From: an uncultured Eubacteriales bacterium | GTDB taxonomy: Bacteria; Bacillota; Clostridia; Oscillospirales; Acutalibacteraceae | NCBI GenBank assembly: GCA_934729465.1 | Contig: CAKVEP010000010.1 | Location: 27,076 to 59,075, forward strand | Length of the DNA stretch: 32,000 bases | Reading direction: 5' to 3' | Shown here: positions 1,780-29,948 of the stretch, in pieces | Layout: the number at the start of each line of letters is the position of its first letter | Position numbering within the stretch: the stretch's first letter is position 1 | Translations under genes and position numbers: made by a program | Notes under the pieces: generated by a model | Database searches by the model: none | Seen by the model: only the letters and a program-made list of their open reading frames with translations | Told to the model about the DNA's origin: nothing

Positions 1780-3603
1780 ATGGTAATATTCAATTCAAGA
1801 GACTTAATATACAGAAATCCTTTCGGCGCAGTTGAAGAGGGAGTTTTTATACATTTTAAAATTATTTTAAAAAGGTCTCTCGGTTGTAGGTATTCAACGC
1901 TTAAGGTGTTTCAAGACGAAAGCTCAGAAGTAGAAAATATTAATATGTATTGGTGCGGAATGTATGGGGATAATCATGAAATGTGGGAATGCGATTATGC
2001 TCCTTCAAGAATGGGATTGTACTGGTACAATTTTGAGATAACAACAAACAGCTTTAAAAAGACAATAGGAAAAAGCGACTCAACCGGCAACGGCGTTCTG
2101 GACTGTGATAACAAGTGGCAGCTCACGTGTTACAAAAGGGACTTTAAAACTCCGAAATGGATGTATAACGGAGTAATGTATCAAATATTTCCCGATAGAT
2201 TTTATAATTCCGGAAAACCTAAAAATAATGTTCCAAAAGACCGTATTCTCCACGAAAACTGGCTTTCTCCACCAATACACACCCCAAACGATAAGGGAGA
2301 GTACCTTAATAACGATTTTTTCAAAGGTGATATTCAAGGTATCATCGAAAAAATACCTTATTTAAAAAAATTAGGTGTAACCTGCGTTTACCTCAATCCC
2401 ATTTTCGAATCTCATTCAAATCATAGATACGACACCGCCGATTACGAAAAAATCGACCCTCTCCTTGGAACAGAAAGTGATTACGATAATCTTTGTAAAG
2501 AACTAAGGAAAAACGGTATACACTTAATTTTAGACGGTGTGTTTAGTCACACGGGTCAAGACAGTAAATATTTTAACAAATTCTCAAGATACGACACCAT
2601 TGGAGCGTTTAATTCAAAGCAATCCGACTTCTATGACTGGTACAGCTTCGAGGAATGGCCAAATGTTTATAAATCGTGGTGGGGAATTAATTCTCTGCCC
2701 GAAACAAACGAAACCTGTAAATCTTTTAACGATTTCATCAACGGAGAACACGGTATTATAAGAAAATGGATTAAAAAAGGGGCTAGTGGGTGGCGTTTAG
2801 ACGTTGCCGACGAATTGCCTGATGAATTTTTATACGAGTTACGAAAAGCTGCAAAAAGCGAAAATCCTGAATGTTTTATCTTAGGTGAGGTATGGGAAGA
2901 CGCCTCAAACAAAATAAGCTACGGTCACAGACGAAAATTTATTTTGGGAAATCAACTCGACAGCGTTATGAATTATCCCTTTAAAGACGCTATCCTTGAT
3001 TTTGTTTGTGGGAAAGATAGCTTTCGTGTTATGGAAACAATACTTAGCGTATTAGAAAATTATCCTCCTCCCGTGATAAAGGTACTTATGAACCCTCTGA
3101 GCACCCACGATACTATTCGTGCAATCACTCTACTTGCGGGAACCCCTTATATTAATCAAGACAGAAATTTTCAAGCAACCACACGTCTATCAAAAGAGCA
3201 ATACGATAAAGGAATCATATTAATGAAATTAGCCTCCGCCATACAATTTACACTTCCGGGAGTTCCGTGTATATACTACGGCGACGAAGCTGGAGTAGAG
3301 GGGTATCTCGACCCGTTTAACAGAAAACCTTTTCCTTGGAATCACGAAAACGAAGAACTAATAAAGTGGCACATTTACCTTGCAAAATTAAGAAAAGACA
3401 ATGAAAAAGCTTTTTCGGGTAATTTTTCTCCTCTAAAAATACAAAAAAATTTTATATCATACATATGGCAAAACGAAAAAAGCTCTCTGCTTTGCTTTTT
3501 CAACGCAGGAAACGAAGAAGTTAGTGTTAATTTAAGCGATTTTAATTTCAGCGGCGAAGTTAAAATACAAGCTAAAAGTTGTAAAATTATAGAGAATAGA
3601 TAA
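1780..3603 (+). CDS. GH13 alpha-amylase-family glycosidase (neopullulanase/cyclomaltodextrinase-like)
   Basis: 607-aa ORF with the GH13 conserved regions: LILDGVFSHTG (I), GWRLDVADE (II, nucleophile Asp), GEVWED (III, acid/base Glu) and PLSTHDT (IV-like). Confidence 0.85.
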   Translation: MVIFNSRDLIYRNPFGAVEEGVFIHFKIILKRSLGCRYSTLKVFQDESSEVENINMYWCGMYGDNHEMWECDYAPSRMGLYWYNFEITTNSFKKTIGKSDSTGNGVLDCDNKWQLTCYKRDFKTPKWMYNGVMYQIFPDRFYNSGKPKNNVPKDRILHENWLSPPIHTPNDKGEYLNNDFFKGDIQGIIEKIPYLKKLGVTCVYLNPIFESHSNHRYDTADYEKIDPLLGTESDYDNLCKELRKNGIHLILDGVFSHTGQDSKYFNKFSRYDTIGAFNSKQSDFYDWYSFEEWPNVYKSWWGINSLPETNETCKSFNDFINGEHGIIRKWIKKGASGWRLDVADELPDEFLYELRKAAKSENPECFILGEVWEDASNKISYGHRRKFILGNQLDSVMNYPFKDAILDFVCGKDSFRVMETILSVLENYPPPVIKVLMNPLSTHDTIRAITLLAGTPYINQDRNFQATTRLSKEQYDKGIILMKLASAIQFTLPGVPCIYYGDEAGVEGYLDPFNRKPFPWNHENEELIKWHIYLAKLRKDNEKAFSGNFSPLKIQKNFISYIWQNEKSSLLCFFNAGNEEVSVNLSDFNFSGEVKIQAKSCKIIENR

Positions 3604-3669
3604 ATTTTTAAAAATCTAAAATTTGTTTTTATAAATTTATCTAAACTTAAAATTTTTTCAAAAAAACTC

Positions 3670-3698
3670 TTGACTTCTTTCACTCCTTACATTATAAT
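3670..3698 (+). promoter_or_regulatory. Sigma-A-type promoter of 5S copy 1
   Basis: TTGACT (3670-3675), a 17-nt spacer, then TATAAT (3693-3698). An A/T tract (aaaattttttcaaaaaaa) immediately upstream looks like an UP element. The RNA 5' end lies ~8 nt downstream. Confidence 0.65.
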
Positions 3699-3705
3699 AA
3701 TTTAT

Positions 3706-3821
3706 GTTAGTGTTGATGGTGATGAGGGTACACCTGTTCCCTTCTCGAACACAGTAGTTAAGCTCATTTACGTCGAAAATACTTGACCGGTGACGGTCCG
3801 GAAAGATAGATAGACGCTAAC
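3706..3821 (+). rRNA. rrf: 5S rRNA gene, stand-alone (no 16S/23S in the window)
   Basis: 116 nt. It contains CACCUGUUCCCUUCUCGAACACAGUAGUUAAGC, matching the conserved 5S helix III/loop C core. The termini GUUAGUGUU and GACGCUAAC pair to form helix I. There is a GACCG-GUGA-CGGUC hairpin in the helix IV/V arm. Confidence 0.8.
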
Positions 3822-3828
3822 ATTTATT

Positions 3829-3861
3829 AAGAGTAATCATTAAAATGATTACTCTTTTTTG
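3829..3861 (+). terminator. Intrinsic terminator after 5S copy 1
   Basis: 10-bp stem AGAGTAATCA (3830-3839) / TGATTACTCT (3846-3855) followed by a T-run. Confidence 0.75.
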
Positions 3862-3878
3862 TTGTTGTTTTTATTTTA

Positions 3879-4361
3879 TTATTCGAATTTTTTGGCAAGT
3901 TGATTTCCTCCAAAACCTCCTAAAGCGCCCATTCCAACTACAGTTGCTCCAGCGCCTATAACTCCCCCTACTACTGCTCCGATAGCAGTTTTCAATTTTC
4001 TTTCATCTTCGCTACGCTTACGGTTAGCGTCGTAACTAATTTTTCCTCCCAGTGCACCGAACATCCAAAATGTGTACTTTGATATCAATATACCTAAGGT
4101 AGTTCCTGCACCAGCTCCCAATGCCATTCCGACATCTCTTGTTGTCTTACTTCCTCCCGAGATTTCTTCTAATTCATCGGGGGTTAATTCTTTGCTAACC
4201 TCATGCACTCCTTCTATAATTAGATTTATTTCTTCATCAGTGAAGTCTAAACCTGCTTCGTGGAGCATATTTTTTACAGACTCAAAATCTGTTTGCCTTG
4301 CTAATTTCTCCATAAATTCCTTGTCGTTAACTACCTTTTCCAAAACTTTTTCATCTACCAT
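3879..4361 (-). CDS. Bacteriocin-like precursor: 70-aa Nif11-like leader ending in GG plus a 90-aa glycine-zipper core (paralogue 1)
   Basis: The N-terminus MVDEKVLEKVVNDKEFMEKLARQTDFESVKNMLHEAGLDFTDEE...LTPDELEEISGG fits the Nif11-type leader pattern (L..kv..D..f.ekL, eaGf.ft.eEl, ls.eELe.vsGG). The core has two Gly/Ala-rich hydrophobic segments (GMALGAGAGTTLG; IGAVVGGVIGAGATVVGMGALGGFGG) separated by a charged loop. An AGGAGG SD lies 9 nt before the ATG. Confidence 0.7.
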   Translation of the reverse strand: MVDEKVLEKVVNDKEFMEKLARQTDFESVKNMLHEAGLDFTDEEINLIIEGVHEVSKELTPDELEEISGGSKTTRDVGMALGAGAGTTLGILISKYTFWMFGALGGKISYDANRKRSEDERKLKTAIGAVVGGVIGAGATVVGMGALGGFGGNQLAKKFE

Positions 4362-4396
4362 TGTTTTATACCTCCTATAATTTAATTTGCAGGAAT

Positions 4397-4425
4397 ATTA
4401 TAACATTATACATTAGGTTTGTCAA
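4397..4425 (-). promoter_or_regulatory. Consensus sigma-A promoter of precursor 1
   Basis: On the minus strand: TTGACA (4425-4420), a 17-nt spacer, then TATAAT (4402-4397). Confidence 0.65.
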
Positions 4426-4472
4426 TACATTTTGTGCAAAAAATAAAACTTAAAATTTTTTCAAAAAAACCC

Positions 4473-4501
4473 TTGACTTCTTTCACTCCTTACATTATAA
4501 T
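4473..4501 (+). promoter_or_regulatory. Sigma-A-type promoter of 5S copy 2
   Basis: Identical to 3670-3698: TTGACT, 17 nt, TATAAT, with an upstream A/T tract. Confidence 0.65.
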
Positions 4502-4508
4502 AATTTAT

Positions 4509-4624
4509 GTTAGTGTTGATGGTGATGAGGGTACACCTGTTCCCTTCTCGAACACAGTAGTTAAGCTCATTTACGTCGAAAATACTTGATCGGTGACGGT
4601 CCGGAAAGATAGATAGATGCTAAC
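4509..4624 (+). rRNA. rrf: 5S rRNA gene, stand-alone, copy 2
   Basis: It differs from copy 1 at two positions, both C to T (4567 and 4618). Both fall in helices and leave a G-U wobble pair. Confidence 0.8.
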
Positions 4625-4631
4625 ATTTATT

Positions 4632-4664
4632 AAGAGTAATCATTAAAATGATTACTCTTTTTTG
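4632..4664 (+). terminator. Intrinsic terminator after 5S copy 2
   Basis: Same hairpin and T-run as 3829-3861. Confidence 0.75.
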
Positions 4665-4678
4665 TTGTTCTTATTTTA

Positions 4679-5161
4679 TTATTCAAAAGCTTTGGCAAAT
4701 TGATTTCCTCCAAAGCCTCCTAAAACGCCCATTCCAACTACAGTTGCTCCGGCACTTATAATTCCTCCTACCACCATTCCGACAGTAGCTTTCTCTATCC
4801 TTTCAAGTTCGCTACACTTACGGTTAATGGCATAACTAATTTTTCTGCCCAGTGTACTGCCTAACAAAAATGTGAGCACTGACGCCGGTAAACCTACGGC
4901 AGTTCCTATACCGGCTCCTATTGTCGTTCCGATAACTCTTGTTGTCTTACTTCCTCCAGAGATTTCTTCTAATTCATCGGGGGTTAATTCTTTGCTAACC
5001 TCATGCACTCCTTCTATAATTAGATTTATTTCTTCATCAGTGAAGTCTAAACCTGCTTCGTGGAGCATATTTTTTACAGACTCAAAATCTGTTTGCCTTG
5101 CTAATTTCTCCATAAATTCCTTGTCGTTAACTACCTTTTCCAAAACTTTTTCATCTACCAT
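4679..5161 (-). CDS. Bacteriocin-like precursor: Nif11-like GG leader plus glycine-zipper core (paralogue 2)
   Basis: The 70-aa leader is identical in protein to paralogue 1, with one synonymous nt difference seen. The 90-aa core is the same length but differs at 34 positions by my manual alignment. The C-terminal GATVVGMG.LGGFGGNQ.AK.FE is conserved. Confidence 0.7.
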   Translation of the reverse strand: MVDEKVLEKVVNDKEFMEKLARQTDFESVKNMLHEAGLDFTDEEINLIIEGVHEVSKELTPDELEEISGGSKTTRVIGTTIGAGIGTAVGLPASVLTFLLGSTLGRKISYAINRKCSELERIEKATVGMVVGGIISAGATVVGMGVLGGFGGNQFAKAFE

Positions 5162-5194
5162 TTTTATACCTCCTACAATTCAATTTATAGGAGT

Positions 5195-5223
5195 ATTATA
5201 ACATTATACATTTCATTTGTCAA
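5195..5223 (-). promoter_or_regulatory. Consensus sigma-A promoter of precursor 2
   Basis: On the minus strand: TTGACA (5223-5218), a 17-nt spacer, then TATAAT (5200-5195). Confidence 0.65.
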
Positions 5224-5322
5224 TATATTTTGTACAAAATTGTATAAATTTACTACCGTTTATCAAAAATAATTAATATCAGTAACTATTTTCTTTCAAA
5301 AAACCTTATAAAACAAACATAA

Positions 5323-5352
5323 CCACCTATTTGAATTATCCCAAATAGGTGG
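5323..5352 (-). terminator. Intrinsic terminator closing the serS-guaB-small ORF transcription unit (T-rich on both sides)
   Basis: 11-bp stem CCACCTATTTG (5323-5333) / CAAATAGGTGG (5342-5352). T-rich sequence follows the hairpin in both orientations. Confidence 0.6.
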
Positions 5353-5464
5353 TTTTACTATTTTTTTAATCCTGTTTTTTATTCTTAAACATATTAATCA
5401 TAAATCGCATATATTCCGTTCCTACGGAAATACCAATTCCTGTTGCTAAACCTGCGTCTATATT

Positions 5465-5581
5465 CTAAGCGCCTATTAAGTGAGCTACTTTAAAAAGTGC
5501 CAACCCAAGAGCAATTCCGCCAATTACTTTTAGCAATATTTCCGGAATGTAACTAATAAACTTGATTAACGATTTTATCAT
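5465..5581 (-). CDS. 38-aa hydrophobic peptide MIKSLIKFISYIPEILLKVIGGIALGLALFKVAHLIGA; the same frame stays open past the TAG for 32 more codons, to 5366
   Basis: Hand translation. It starts 30 nt downstream of guaB on the same strand, with only a weak SD (AAGAAGTGA). The post-TAG segment NIDAGLATGIGISVGTEYMRFMINMFKNKKQD also looks like coding sequence, so this may be a 71-codon gene with a premature stop. Confidence 0.3.
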   Translation of the reverse strand: MIKSLIKFISYIPEILLKVIGGIALGLALFKVAHLIGA

Positions 5582-5611
5582 GTCGGTCACTTCTTTTATA
5601 AATTAGTGTGA

Positions 5612-17665: not shown

Positions 17666-18982
17666 ATGGAATCTTTTAACGAGGCGTGGGAGTTAATTTG
17701 TGATTTTTGTAAATCACGTATTACCGATGTTGCCTACAAAACTTGGATTAGTCGAATCGAACCTATAAAACTCGATTTCGATAATGGCACTGCTATATTA
17801 ATGGTGCCGAATGAATTTCACAGGCAGCTTCTAAACAGGAGCTACATGAATCTTTTAAACAGTGCTTTCAGCGAAATCTTCGGAGCTGGCTTCGATATTT
17901 GCTTGACTGTTCCTGATGAAGTAAACACAAACAACAAGAAAAATGACCAGAATCTTGCAATAGACTCTGAATACGAATTCACTTTCGACACATATATCGT
18001 TGGGTCTTCAAATAAATTCGCTCACGCTGCTGCATTGGCTGTTGCCGCAAACCCTGCGGGGGCTTACAATCCTCTGTTTATATACGGAAATTCCGGACTG
18101 GGAAAAACTCACCTTCTTTATGCAATTTGTAATGATATAAAGAAAAATCGTCCCGACATGACTACCCTTTATATAAAAGGCGATGATTTCACAAACGAAC
18201 TTATCGACTCTATAAGGAAAAACACAACAAGCGAATTTCATCAAAAATACAGAAGAACAGATATTCTCCTTGTGGACGACATCCAGTTTATAGCCGGAAA
18301 AGACTCTACTCAAGAAGAATTTTTCCATACCTTTAATTCTCTGTATGAAGCCAAAAAACAAATAGTTTTAACGTCAGACAGACCCCCAAAAGAAATTCAG
18401 ACCCTTGAAGACAGGCTTCGTACCAGGTTTGAATGGGGTCTAATTGCAGATATTCAGCCTCCGGATTTTGAAACACGTATAGCAATAGTCAAAAGGAAGG
18501 CTGAAAGTTTAGATATAAAAATACCTAACGAAGTATGCGAATACATAGCTAAAAAATTAAAAACAAACATTAGACAGCTCGAAGGAGCCGTAAAAAAGAT
18601 GAAAGCTCACCATCTTCTAGGCGGAGAACCTATGGGAATCCACACAGCTCAAATCGCTATTTCCGATATACTGAATAACGACCAGCCACCACCAATGACT
18701 GTCGAAAAAATCATAGAAGAAGTAGCACGTACTTTCGGAGTCACAGCTGCAGATATAAGGTCATCAAAAAGGTCTTCAACAATATCTAATGCTAGACAAA
18801 TTTCAATGTATGTAGTAAGGGAAATAACTCAGCTTCCTCTCGCTGCAATCGGAGAAGAATACGGTGGAAGAGACCATTCAACGATAGTTTACGCATTACA
18901 ACAAGTTGAAAAGAATATAAATAAGGATTCTAAATTAAAGGCAATGGTGGAAGATATAATAAAAAATATAAGAGACAGATAA
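17666..18982 (+). CDS. dnaA: Chromosomal replication initiator DnaA
   Basis: 438 aa, with the AAA+ Walker A GNSGLGKTHLL and the domain IV sequence GGRDHSTIVYA. Confidence 0.97.
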   Translation: MESFNEAWELICDFCKSRITDVAYKTWISRIEPIKLDFDNGTAILMVPNEFHRQLLNRSYMNLLNSAFSEIFGAGFDICLTVPDEVNTNNKKNDQNLAIDSEYEFTFDTYIVGSSNKFAHAAALAVAANPAGAYNPLFIYGNSGLGKTHLLYAICNDIKKNRPDMTTLYIKGDDFTNELIDSIRKNTTSEFHQKYRRTDILLVDDIQFIAGKDSTQEEFFHTFNSLYEAKKQIVLTSDRPPKEIQTLEDRLRTRFEWGLIADIQPPDFETRIAIVKRKAESLDIKIPNEVCEYIAKKLKTNIRQLEGAVKKMKAHHLLGGEPMGIHTAQIAISDILNNDQPPPMTVEKIIEEVARTFGVTAADIRSSKRSSTISNARQISMYVVREITQLPLAAIGEEYGGRDHSTIVYALQQVEKNINKDSKLKAMVEDIIKNIRDR

Positions 18983-27807: not shown

Positions 27808-27859
27808 AACTTTTAGTGGTGGCACATGAATGTTATATTTAAGGGCGATGAGGCTTTAA

Positions 27860-28003
27860 ATGGGACTTATTAAAACAGTATTGCTGAGCGCTTTCGGGAC
27901 TATCGTATGCGGCAGTGTTATTGAGCGGTGGCTTACCCGTAAAATATCTGTTGCGATGAATACCTTAAAAGAACGTATGATAAAAGAAAAACACATAAAT
28001 TAA
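27860..28003 (+). CDS. Micro-ORF P1, 47 aa: MGLIKTVLLSAFGTIVCGSVIERWLTRKISVAMNTLKERMIKEKHIN
   Basis: Hand translation. A GAGG lies 7 nt before the ATG. There is no terminator between gyrA and this ORF. It is a paralogue of P3 (KTVLL; K[IV].[SV]A[MT].N). Confidence 0.5.
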   Translation: MGLIKTVLLSAFGTIVCGSVIERWLTRKISVAMNTLKERMIKEKHIN

Positions 28004-28009
28004 AACGAG

Positions 28010-28040
28010 AGTCGGTCGCTAACGGTCGGCTTTCCTTTTG
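28010..28040 (+). terminator. Possible terminator after P1
   Basis: 9-bp stem AGTCGGTCG / CGGTCGGCT (three G-U pairs) with loop CTAA, followed by TTCCTTTT. Confidence 0.4.
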
Positions 28041-28076
28041 GTGATACACAATAAATTAAAATTTTATAATAAATAA

Positions 28077-28105
28077 TTGACATTTTATTAAATTAATATT
28101 ATAAT
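28077..28105 (+). promoter_or_regulatory. Consensus sigma-A promoter (P2 module)
   Basis: TTGACA (28077-28082), a 17-nt spacer, then TATAAT (28100-28105). Confidence 0.65.
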
Positions 28106-28135
28106 TAAAACAAAGGAGGGAATTTAAAAAAGTTT

Positions 28136-28285
28136 TTGATAATTTCTGTAGGTAATTTATTAGGTGCAGCTGCTGTTGCAGTTCCGACGATTATAATTTG
28201 GAATAGTAAAGTAAATGCAATGGAAAATGAAGCTACACAGATAATTAGAGATGGAGTCAGAAAAGCTATTAATAAAAATAGTTAA
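28136..28285 (+). CDS. Micro-ORF P2, 49 aa if TTG-initiated: (M)IISVGNLLGAAAVAVPTIIIWNSKVNAMENEATQIIRDGVRKAINKNS; an N-terminally truncated paralogue of P4
   Basis: It aligns codon for codon with P4, but the ATG and the first 8 codons are replaced by the promoter/SD module. The only in-frame start is a TTG ~15 nt after GGAGGG, so this may be a pseudogene. Confidence 0.3.
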   Translation: MIISVGNLLGAAAVAVPTIIIWNSKVNAMENEATQIIRDGVRKAINKNS

Positions 28286-28309
28286 GTTGAACTAAAAATT
28301 AAAAAACAG

Positions 28310-28338
28310 TTGACATTAAGTTGTGTTCATGTTATAAT
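28310..28338 (+). promoter_or_regulatory. Consensus sigma-A promoter (P3)
   Basis: TTGACA (28310-28315), a 17-nt spacer, then TATAAT (28333-28338). Confidence 0.65.
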
Positions 28339-28368
28339 TAAATTAATAAAGGTAAAGGGGAAATTTAA

Positions 28369-28539
28369 ATGCAAATTTTAAAAACAGTATTATTAGTTGC
28401 TTTGAGTAGAGCAGTAACTATTGGTGTTTCTGTAGGGGTAGTATGGGTAACTGTTTGGGCTATGAAGAAAAAGGTTGTTTCTGCCACACGTAATGTAATG
28501 AATGCTTGTGTTGAAGAAGCTGCTTTGGCAGGAAGATAG
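28369..28539 (+). CDS. Micro-ORF P3, 56 aa: MQILKTVLLVALSRAVTIGVSVGVVWVTVWAMKKKVVSATRNVMNACVEEAALAGR
   Basis: Hand translation. An AAAGGGG SD lies 8 nt before the ATG, and the consensus promoter is 30 nt upstream of the SD. Confidence 0.6.
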   Translation: MQILKTVLLVALSRAVTIGVSVGVVWVTVWAMKKKVVSATRNVMNACVEEAALAGR

Positions 28540-28662
28540 ATTTAGGCGGAATATTTATAGTTGTTGCAAGGTGATAGGTTTTATATATTACTAAAAAATT
28601 TCGTAATATGTTTAATTGAAAATATAATGGTGCAATTTAATATATTAGAAGGAGAATTTTAA

Positions 28663-28824
28663 ATGATAGATTTTTTAAAAAAGTTTTTGATAATTTCTGT
28701 AGGTAATTTATTAGGTACAGCTGCTGTTGCAGTTCCGATGATTATAATTTTGAATAGTAAAGTAAATGCAATGGAAAATGAAGCTATACAGATGATTAGA
28801 GAAGTTATTAATGGAAATAGTTAA
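28663..28824 (+). CDS. Micro-ORF P4, 53 aa: MIDFLKKFLIISVGNLLGTAAVAVPMIIILNSKVNAMENEAIQMIREVINGNS
   Basis: Hand translation. An AAGGAG SD lies 8 nt before the ATG. Its own promoter is unclear (a TATAAT at 28623-28628 with a poor -35), so it may be read through from P3. Confidence 0.55.
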   Translation: MIDFLKKFLIISVGNLLGTAAVAVPMIIILNSKVNAMENEAIQMIREVINGNS

Positions 28825-28849
28825 GTTGAACTAAAAATTAAAAAAACAG

Positions 28850-28878
28850 TTGACATTTTATTAAGTTAATGTTATAAT
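28850..28878 (+). promoter_or_regulatory. Consensus sigma-A promoter (P5 module; homologous to the P2 module)
   Basis: TTGACA (28850-28855), a 17-nt spacer, then TATAAT (28873-28878). Confidence 0.65.
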
Positions 28879-28910
28879 TAAAGCGAGAATAAAACAAAGG
28901 AGGAATTCAA

Positions 28911-29021
28911 ATGAAAACTTTTAAAAAAATATTGATGATTTATACAGCTAATGTTCTAAGTTTAGCAACTGTTAGAGGAATAGAAATATTAATTTGTACG
29001 AAAACAGATTGGCTTAGTTAA
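28911..29021 (+). CDS. Micro-ORF P5, 36 aa: MKTFKKILMIYTANVLSLATVRGIEILICTKTDWLS
   Basis: Hand translation. An AAAGGAGG SD lies 7 nt before the ATG. Confidence 0.55.
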   Translation: MKTFKKILMIYTANVLSLATVRGIEILICTKTDWLS

Positions 29022-29057
29022 TAAGTGCATTTTCCTAAGTTTATGCTATGAGAAAGG

Positions 29058-29083
29058 CTAGCTGGTAACAGCTAGTTTTTTTT
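29058..29083 (+). terminator. Intrinsic terminator after P5
   Basis: CTAGCTG, loop GTAA, CAGCTAG, followed by eight T. Confidence 0.75.
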
Positions 29084-29125
29084 ATTAAGGAGCAAAAATA
29101 AGTTTTAAATTTATTTTAAAAATAG

Positions 29126-29154
29126 TTGACTTTGAGTTGAATCTATGTTTTAAT
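29126..29154 (+). promoter_or_regulatory. Sigma-A-type promoter (P6)
   Basis: TTGACT (29126-29131), a 17-nt spacer, then TTTAAT (29149-29154). Confidence 0.55.
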
Positions 29155-29184
29155 TGAATTAACAAAAGTAAAGGAGGAATTCAA

Positions 29185-29295
29185 ATGAAAACTTTTAAAA
29201 AAATATTGATGATTTATACAGCTAATGTTCTAAGTTTAGCAACTGTTAGAGGAATAGAAATATTAATTTGTACGAAAACAGATTGGCTTAGTTAA
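29185..29295 (+). CDS. Micro-ORF P6, 36 aa, identical to P5
   Basis: It is the second copy of the 274-bp unit. Confidence 0.55.
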   Translation: MKTFKKILMIYTANVLSLATVRGIEILICTKTDWLS

Positions 29296-29331
29296 TAAGT
29301 GCATTTTCCTAAGTTTATGCTATGAGAAAGG

Positions 29332-29357
29332 CTAGCTGGTAACAGCTAGTTTTTTTT
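29332..29357 (+). terminator. Intrinsic terminator after P6
   Basis: Identical to 29058-29083. Confidence 0.75.
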
Positions 29358-29399
29358 ATTAAGGAGCAAAAATAAGTTTTAAATTTATTTTAAAAATAG

Positions 29400-29428
29400 T
29401 TGACTTTGAGTTGAATCTATGTTTTAAT
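29400..29428 (+). promoter_or_regulatory. Sigma-A-type promoter (P7)
   Basis: Identical to 29126-29154. Confidence 0.55.
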
Positions 29429-29458
29429 TGAATTAACAAAAGTAAAGGAGGAATTCAA

Positions 29459-29590
29459 ATGAAATTAACTGGAAGAGCTTTGTTTGATAATTTTAGCAAA
29501 TATTTAGTTTCGATTTCAATTAAAATAAGAAATGAATTAAATAAAAATACTCAAGTGCTACCGCCTAACAAGAGGCAAGAAAAGAAATAA
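29459..29590 (+). CDS. Micro-ORF P7, 43 aa, basic and not hydrophobic: MKLTGRALFDNFSKYLVSISIKIRNELNKNTQVLPPNKRQEKK
   Basis: It uses the same promoter/SD/ATG-AAA module as P5 and P6 but has an unrelated body. A strong terminator follows. Confidence 0.4.
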   Translation: MKLTGRALFDNFSKYLVSISIKIRNELNKNTQVLPPNKRQEKK

Positions 29591-29624
29591 TTTGATTTAT
29601 AAATGCATATATTGAATAAAGTTG

Positions 29625-29657
29625 AAAGTCAGCTAGCAAAGGCTGACTTTTTATTTT
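29625..29657 (+). terminator. Intrinsic terminator after P7
   Basis: AAAGTCAGC (29625-29633) / GCTGACTTT (29642-29650), followed by TTATTTTTATT. Confidence 0.75.
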
Positions 29658-29948
29658 TATTAAAATTTAATTCATGTTTAATAAATATTAAAGTATATGA
29701 GTTGAATTTTTAATTGCTTTTGTGTTAGCATATGCTTTAATAATGAGTATAATTAGCAATTTAGATATCAGAAATTTATTTTAAAGAAACGAGGTTGGTT
29801 TTAATAAGTTACAATTTAGCAAGGTATTTGAGATGCTTTATAGGAAACCTGATAACTTATGGATTTTTATATTGGCGTTTTAAACCTTATGTTGATGAAT
29901 ACATCGTAAAAGGTGTGAATGGGGCGAAAAATATAAGAAGCAAAGCAG

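Follow-up and report, generated by a model that had tools for sequence, protein, structure and literature searches.

A stand-alone 5S rRNA gene embedded in a copy-number-variable array of Nif11/double-glycine precursor genes near the replication origin of an uncultured gut Clostridia bacterium

Why is a gene for 5S ribosomal RNA (rRNA) copied together with a gene for a bacteriocin-type precursor peptide, and do the two work together? The question is raised by a 32,000-nucleotide stretch of DNA (hereafter called "the window") from an uncultured Eubacteriales bacterium of the Acutalibacteraceae (assembly GCA_934729465.1, contig CAKVEP010000010.1, positions 27,076 to 59,075 of the forward strand). 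In this window, a module that pairs a stand-alone 5S gene with a convergent gene for a Nif11-type double-glycine (GG) precursor occurs twice in tandem. The anatomy of the locus is real and unusual, and it most likely reflects inheritance of the two genes as neighbours, which the evidence fits better than a working partnership. We consider it probable, if by no means certain, that a genuine 5S gene is embedded here in a copy-number-variable array of class-II-like Nif11/GG precursor genes, and that the two genes are autonomous, being linked by their ~60-nt proximity and by joint inheritance and duplication.

The two units, each of ~800 bp, were delimited by unit alignment, supported for the first by the repeat families D1-D3. 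Unit 1 (3643-4445) carries a 5S cassette and the type-A precursor gene and lies on the side of an amylase gene, while unit 2 (4446-5242) carries a 5S cassette and the type-B precursor gene and lies on the side of guaB. They are 93% identical overall, with a tandem period of 803, 800 or 798 nt, depending on the segment (repeat families D1-D3). Each unit is composed of two convergent transcription units, each with its own promoter, separated by one hairpin. A first-pass annotation, made from the sequence, had listed these elements, and all of them were recovered in their places.

Is the 5S gene genuine? On the forward strand, a pattern scan located an A/T tract (AAATTTTTTCAAAAAAAC) followed by the near-consensus, sigma-70-type promoter TTGACT-17-TATAAT in unit 1 (3648-3698 together; promoter 3670-3698) and the same promoter in unit 2 (4473-4501). 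These precede 5S genes at 3706-3822 and 4509-4625, which matched the Rfam model RF00001 with 82.1 bits (E 3e-16) and 82.9 bits, respectively, as compared to the gathering score of 38 bits. Both copies span model positions 1-120 of 120. Thus, the first-pass annotation rightly recognized a 5S gene, but its length of 116 nt has to be amended to 117 nt. Copy 2 differs from copy 1 by two C-to-U changes, each of which turns a G-C pair of the Rfam structure into a G-U pair. In both copies, the first base of the 5S match is a G located seven bases 3′ of the -10 hexamer, and transcription would start at this G, which doubles as the mature 5′ end. The terminator hairpin starts 6 nt past the 3′ end. The motif TTGACW-N17-TATAAT occurs eight times in the window, as compared to the 0.05 occurrences expected, and half of these (4/8) are inside the module.

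Besides the two 5S genes, no Rfam family matched in the 32-kb window, and no transfer RNA (tRNA) genes were detected there; therefore, the 5S genes stand alone in the window. No large- or small-subunit rRNA gene and no tRNA gene gave a match anywhere in the window or in the related 20-kb loci. In an rrn operon, the 5S gene lies directly 3′ of the 23S gene within one transcription unit, and this arrangement is not found at this locus.

For comparison, we collected 5S genes by scanning the GTDB genomes with a loop C and helix III pattern, which gave at least 120 matches from many phyla. The window 5S and its counterparts in related Clostridia, five of which were seen to be 23S-linked, can be aligned gap-free, and the nearest sequence among the matches listed is that of Ruminococcaceae bacterium UBA6413 (90% identical). 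In an alignment of 16 sequences, 93.4% of the cells pair in the Rfam structure, and 12 pairs are changed on both sides. None of 500 shuffles matched the observed values, and when the pairing partners were slid by 1-3 columns, only 32-51% of the cells paired. Judged from its sequence, the window 5S is a genuine, normal and constrained gene typical of its clade, and it is predicted to be in a working state.

What does the convergent gene encode? On the reverse strand, open reading frames (ORFs) of 160 amino acids are located at 3879-4361 (type A; leader 4152-4361, 90-residue core 3882-4151) and at 4679-5161 (type B). Each has an AGGAGG ribosome-binding site (4371-4376 and 5169-5174) and a perfect TTGACA-17(TG)-TATAAT promoter (4397-4425 and 5195-5223), so that these control regions occupy 4371-4425 and 5169-5223. 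The two proteins have leaders with identical amino acids and cores that are ~58% identical. The leaders exceed the cut-offs of both Pfam Nif11 (PF07862; 25.4 and 25.3 bits against 23.8) and TIGR03798 (37.2 and 37.0 bits against 32.3). The leader terminates in LTPDELEEISGG (residues 59-70), followed by S, which fits the double-glycine leader consensus, and its GG is invariant in all nine aligned family members. The AlphaFold model, computed with the nine-sequence input, shows a helical leader with confidence.

The core of ~90 residues is glycine-rich, with GxxxG-type motifs and two hydrophobic segments, and contains no conserved cysteine; the latter feature rules out a lanthipeptide or sactipeptide. 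The models of class II bacteriocins gave matches below their cut-offs: TIGR03949 (lactobin A/cerein 7B) scored 20.5 bits for type B and 13.9 bits for type A, against 21.5, and Pfam Bacteriocin_IIc scored 19.0 and 10.5 bits, against 27.1. These weak matches are located at the GG site and the first glycine-rich segment. A sequence search of the PDB returned one marginal match to a Nif11 domain (E 0.11), and PADLOC returned no significant match. The product is best described, by family membership, as a putative unmodified class-II-like bacteriocin, which would be exported, cleaved and antimicrobial. Types A and B are encoded side by side in most two-unit strains, each with its own promoter. Strains with a single type, as well as A-A or B-B arrays, also occur, and since strains with one type exist, the two peptides are probably not obligate partners.

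Between the two genes of each unit lies the hairpin that terminates the 5S transcript and is shared with the 3′ end of the peptide gene. It was found on the forward strand at 3829-3856 in unit 1, by terminator scan and folding, and at 4632-4659 in unit 2, by terminator scan; with their T-runs, the terminators occupy 3829-3862 and 4632-4665. The stem has 12 bp, and the peptide stop codon is 22 nt away. Folding of the unit 1 hairpin yields an energy of -16.8 kcal/mol (z -5.5) when it is read along the 5S gene and of -14.6 kcal/mol when it is read along the peptide gene, and the terminator scan of the module made calls on the 5S strand only. The first-pass annotation had pointed out that no U-run follows the hairpin in the peptide direction, and hence that peptide transcripts could read antisense through the 5S gene. 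This is correct for the window, where the tail is AAUAAAUGUU, but not for all of the lineages. All three lineages that carry the pair (described below) have a stable hairpin between the peptide stop and the 3′ end of the 5S gene, with differing sequences (z -3.2 to -6.4), and that of the locus L015 has a UUUUU tail in the peptide direction. Therefore, the leakiness of the hairpin towards the 5S gene is not conserved among the carriers of the pair.

How did the two units arise, and how have they diverged? The duplication junction, AAGTTTT|ATTTTTTGCACAAAATG, is identical in all of the two-unit strains, which indicates a single ancestral duplication in A/T-rich sequence. Together with the unit-length loop contigs described below, it bears out the earlier claim that the 5S and peptide genes were copied as a single unit. 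The divergence between the units is a mosaic: they are 97% identical in the 5S gene and ~100% in the leader, while they are 79% identical in the core. Between the type A and type B genes, the synonymous divergence (dS) is 0.025 in the leader, where the nonsynonymous divergence (dN) is 0, as compared to a dS of 0.23 in the core, where dN/dS is 1.17 and reaches 2.7 across residues 71-100. The tenfold gap in synonymous divergence does not come from protein selection alone, and thus points to gene conversion or recombination. This pattern implies a process that would keep the 5S gene, the promoters and the leader uniform, while two old core alleles persist.

The copy number also varies among the strains. 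Single units are of type A in L003 and of type B in L010, L011 and L140, and chimeric A/B cores were found in L002 and P0003. In three further samples, L004, L005 and L013, the locus is represented by unit-length contigs of 922, 858 and 855 bases, with terminal overlaps of 119, 55 and 55 bases, which equal the assembler k-mer. Subtraction of these overlaps leaves units of 803, 803 and 800 bases. The k-mer-sized overlaps indicate arrays of at least two identical units, and perhaps of more, in those samples, collapsed by the metagenome assemblers.

How widespread are the peptide family and its pairing with 5S? The family is tiny: among 5.8 billion proteins, a word-indexed search yielded five clusters with a one-sequence query and seven with a profile, an exhaustive HMMER search of 1.84 billion cluster representatives gave only four matches at E <=1e-10, and a scan of the JGI metagenomes with the peptide profile added one contig of the same species. 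All of the close relatives are located between guaB and the amylase gene in gut metagenomes, and a convergent 5S gene is present for every unit.

The pair is not a one-off, since two divergent lineages, L015 and L016, keep the peptide gene, the hairpin and the convergent 5S gene. In L015, the peptide is 44% identical in its best local match, and the guaB C-terminus is ~88% identical (translations compared by reading). Here, the order is guaB, peptide gene, hairpin and convergent 5S gene (88 bits), the latter with its own TTGACA-17-TATAAT promoter and with a change in helix II from A-U to G-C, which preserves the structure. The gene next after the 5S gene is a phosphorylase gene in the orientation opposite to that in the window. 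In L016, the peptide is 41% identical and zapA lies upstream; the contig stops 34 nt into the convergent 5S gene, and this fragment agrees at every base with the 3′ end of the 5S gene in L015. The order of peptide gene, hairpin and 5S gene is thus kept in both, despite inverted flanking segments. Every carrier of the pair belongs to one narrow clade with a common neighbourhood (guaB, zapA, amylase and phosphorylase genes), and descent most likely explains the linkage.

Beyond this clade, no 5S gene was found in the available flanks of four more distant full-length peptide relatives (L017, L018, L143 and L144); for L143 and L144, this result is based on ~100 and 290 nt of downstream sequence. 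In L018, the peptide gene is convergent with the orthologous amylase gene, whose product is 62% identical to that in the window, across a 105-bp spacer with an ordinary terminator and no 5S gene. In L017 (5360-6495), two tandem, divergent Nif11/GG glycine-rich precursors of 190 and 164 amino acids lie ~70 nt apart, adjoining a sugar-type ABC transporter and again without 5S. Judging from L017, tandem pairs without 5S exist as well, and tandem pairing thus seems to characterize the peptide family more widely.

Conversely, does the 5S cassette occur apart from the peptide gene? A protein-database search with a spurious ORF overlapping the 5S gene retrieved two sequences, L142 and L141. L142, a 507-bp scaffold, has an identical A/T tract, promoter and 5S gene, and its similarity to the window starts at the A/T tract. 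Directly upstream of its promoter-5S cassette, positions 1-345 hold ~330 nt of GC-rich, hairpin-rich sequence, which includes GGGGAGTGCAGAGGGG twice and the perfect hairpin GCCTACTTTCTC/GAGAAAGTAGGC. Searches with this stretch gave no match to an Rfam family at E <=1, nor to any phage, plasmid or viral contig. L142 represents either a copy of the cassette that lacks the peptide gene or a chimeric scaffold, and we give it little weight; for what it is worth, it points away from a peptide-specific role of the 5S gene. In L141, which comes from another species, the 5S gene is followed by tRNA genes.

The window covers the replication-origin region, with rnpA, yidC, dnaA (17666-18982), dnaN, recF, gyrB and gyrA, and the cumulative GC skew has its minimum at ~19-20 kb. 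The module is located ~14 kb to the left of dnaA, between a GH13 amylase gene (1780-3603) and a glycogen phosphorylase gene on one side, and a small membrane ORF, guaB, serS and parB/parA on the other. The peptide genes are co-directional with replication, while both 5S genes are transcribed towards the origin, head-on to the replication fork. The L015 5S gene is head-on as well, provided that guaB is oriented there, with respect to the origin, as it is in the window. No recombinase genes were noticed among the ORFs around the locus, in the window or within 10 kb in the related contigs, although no ORF-by-ORF check with family models was made. We reject a phage or plasmid origin of the module, as no relative was found among the IMG/VR viral contigs or the PLSDB plasmids.

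A strong two-way terminator-like hairpin at 5321-5354 (AACCACCTATTTG...CAAATAGGTGGTT, with a 13-15 bp stem) separates the module from the transcription unit of guaB and the small ORF. In four of five strains, this glycine-rich membrane ORF (5372-5590, reverse strand), which lies on the guaB side of the module, carries an in-frame TAG past ~38-41 codons, and the 32 codons past the TAG are identical in all five. In L014 (9581-9796), TCG (Ser) replaces the TAG, and a 71-residue protein results. The ORF may be a polymorphic pseudogene, or a candidate gene for an immunity or accessory peptide. Downstream of gyrA, a region of low GC content (27856-30520; 25-30%) contains at least nine small ORFs of 36-56 amino acids, each with one hydrophobic segment and a charged tail, and several with an AGGAGG-like site. 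Three perfect TTGACA-17-TATAAT promoters lie among them (28077, 28310 and 28850), and a perfect 274-bp tandem duplication (28896-29464) gives two identical 36-residue ORFs. These small ORFs had no Pfam match, and they could encode leaderless bacteriocin-like peptides or small membrane toxins.

We propose the following history for the locus. Ancestrally, the peptide gene would have been convergent with the amylase gene, and the 5S cassette would have been gained, or retained, in the gap between them. A single illegitimate recombination event in A/T-rich sequence would then have duplicated the peptide gene, and the 5S gene was co-duplicated because it was situated between the breakpoints. Subsequently, unequal crossing-over and gene conversion would vary the copy number, producing one unit, two units or runs of identical units, and would also homogenize the 5S genes, the promoters and the leader. 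The cores would represent old diverged alleles under relaxed or diversifying selection. The 160-residue precursor would be strongly promoted and translated, and then cleaved and exported by a C39-peptidase ABC transporter (PCAT) encoded elsewhere.

Several observations weigh against this history of autonomous neighbours. rRNA genes are normally co-directional with replication, and the head-on orientation is unusual for a heavily used rRNA gene. The 5S-free locus in L018 leaves two directions of change, as the 5S gene may have been either gained at the locus or lost in the L018 lineage. The pair has survived at least two flanking rearrangements with both promoters intact in every unit, which is also expected of a selected module. 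On the peptide side, the AlphaFold confidence is low in the core (pLDDT, the predicted local distance difference test score, is <50 at residues 58-116), and no PCAT or other C39/ABC transporter, modifying enzyme or clear immunity gene was found in the window or within 10 kb in L001, L002 and L014. A PCAT may be encoded farther off in the genome. Because no such gene is nearby, the bacteriocin assignment is drawn only from the leader and the composition of the core.

Could selection for 5S dosage have driven the amplification instead? If the rrn operons of this organism lacked 5S, the cassettes would be its main or only 5S genes, and the peptide gene would be a passenger. The cassette is complete, with a strong promoter and terminator, it is ~14 kb from dnaA and the skew minimum, its 5S sequence is conserved across the strains with a structure-preserving change in L015, no rrn operon is present in the window, and L142 hints at further independent promoter-5S cassettes. 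However, single-unit strains are common, the 5S genes face the replication fork, and L017 has duplicated its peptide gene without any 5S. Moreover, the usual 23S-5S linkage is seen in Ruminococcaceae bacterium UBA6413, the closest named relative by 5S among the matches listed, and in other relatives, and the maintenance of divergent cores suggests that selection acts on the peptide. We therefore regard this explanation as unlikely, although it is the least unlikely of the rivals. A different role for the cassette would be that of a dispersed promoter-5S-terminator repeat, which landed beside the peptide gene and serves as a recombination substrate or landmark, its copies seeding inversions, duplications and deletions, with the link to the peptide as a by-product. 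This would suit the identical cassette that follows ~330 nt of unrelated sequence in L142, the rearrangement breakpoints that directly adjoin the pair in L015 and L016, the peptide-amylase junction without 5S in L018, and the contigs L016, L006 and L142 that end within 5S, as repeats would. Yet L142 is a single, possibly chimeric scaffold, no second 5S copy was seen at the other end of the inferred inversions, and no transposase, integrase or target-site duplication is present. The idea overlaps with the history of autonomous neighbours, and is partly compatible with it, more than it excludes it; taken as a separate explanation, we hold it to be rather improbable.

The remaining alternative is that convergent transcription itself is the function, such that polymerase collision or antisense RNA ties the bacteriocin output and the 5S supply to each other in opposite directions. 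A growth-rate-controlled, G-starting 5S promoter would counter those transcripts of the peptide promoter that read through the hairpin on its weak side. All four promoters of the module are consensus-grade, no terminator was found on the peptide strand of the window with its AAUAAAUGUU tail, three lineages retain the convergent order and a hairpin, though of differing sequence, and the pair stayed intact through the flanking inversions. Against this, the leakiness is not conserved, given the UUUUU tail of L015, the overlap at stake is only 117 nt, the 5S terminator keeps transcription of 5S out of the peptide gene, the peptide family at large functions without 5S, and breakpoints within an intergenic gap of ~60 nt are rare by chance. 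The probability of this explanation is as low, in our view, as that of the dispersed repeat. Its most specific form, a selected regulatory module in which the 5S promoter senses GTP and meets the peptide readthrough at a one-way hairpin, so that the two outputs switch oppositely with the growth state, is more doubtful still; the GTP sensing would be by analogy with the Bacillus rrn promoters. If such a selected module existed, whole-unit amplification would raise both outputs and keep the circuit intact.

The history of autonomous neighbours thus retains the joint duplication and the recurrence in L015 and L016 that speak for a module, as the first-pass annotation had proposed, but descent suffices to explain them, distant relatives show no 5S gene in their available flanks, and the tail asymmetry is not conserved. 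That annotation had suggested three meanings for the pair (growth-rate coupling through convergent transcription, an antisense-5S by-product, or a 5S gene serving as a landmark for recombination or insertion), and the last and most modest of these, the 5S gene as a landmark or recombination neighbour, fits best.

What would the locus teach us in either case? If the association is only historical, it still provides an example of an rRNA gene reduced to a minimal promoter-to-terminator cassette, of concerted evolution beside diversifying divergence within one 800-bp repeat, and of a variable tandem array that appears in metagenome assemblies as collapsed, unit-length loop contigs. Moreover, the peptides, which are long, glycine-rich and of the Nif11/GG type, make up a small and hitherto unannotated family of possible bacteriocins in uncultured gut Clostridia. 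If the pairing were functional, it would represent a new way to tie antimicrobial output to ribosome synthesis, although nothing that we found requires this.

Finally, how does the locus compare with known systems? Our literature searches found no description of a linkage between 5S and bacteriocin genes. Convergent gene pairs that share a terminator or interfere in transcription are a general bacterial phenomenon, and here, similarly, two strong promoters face each other across a hairpin located ~22 nt from the stop codon and 6 nt from the RNA 3′ end. In the present pair, however, one partner is an rRNA gene, the interference is hypothetical, and the hairpin asymmetry is not kept in L015. The class IIb and glycine-rich class II bacteriocins (TIGR03949, Bacteriocin_IIc and microcin V) share the double-glycine leader and the GxxxG-type glycine-rich cores, and class IIb bacteriocins also have two different peptides encoded side by side. 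In contrast, the cores in the window are 2-3 times longer, the family scores are below the cut-offs, and the two genes are separately transcribed.

Arrays of Nif11-type double-glycine precursor peptides are also known; the family (TIGR03798) was reportedly described by Haft et al. in 2010, and the prochlorosin ProcA peptides are an example. It is a known pattern that Nif11 precursors occur in tandem or in clusters and vary in the core but not in the leader, e.g., the LahA1-9 peptides of Lachnospiraceae bacterium C6A11, substrates of the PCAT protease domain LahT150 (PMC6363468). Like these arrays, the precursors in the window have a leader of ~70 residues that passes the model, a GG motif, a near-invariant leader with a hypervariable core, several paralogues side by side, and a gut Firmicute host. 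Unlike them, they have a long (~90-residue), glycine-rich core without conserved cysteine, and hence lack the signature of a lanthipeptide; the vicinity holds neither LanM nor PCAT nor any other maturation gene, every copy is driven by a promoter of its own, and the copies are separated by an rRNA gene.

On the rRNA side, clostridia are already known to carry extra single 5S genes (PMC3519856), and papers on Francisella genomes likewise speak of "orphan 5S". The 5S genes of the window resemble these orphans in being full-length and intact, in having no link to 23S or 16S within the available sequence, and in belonging to a low-GC, Firmicute-type genome. They differ in that each is self-contained, with a predicted start that coincides with the mature 5′ end and a terminator 6 nt past the 3′ end, and in that each is part of a tandem unit with a protein-coding gene, which varies in copy number and places the 5S gene head-on to replication.

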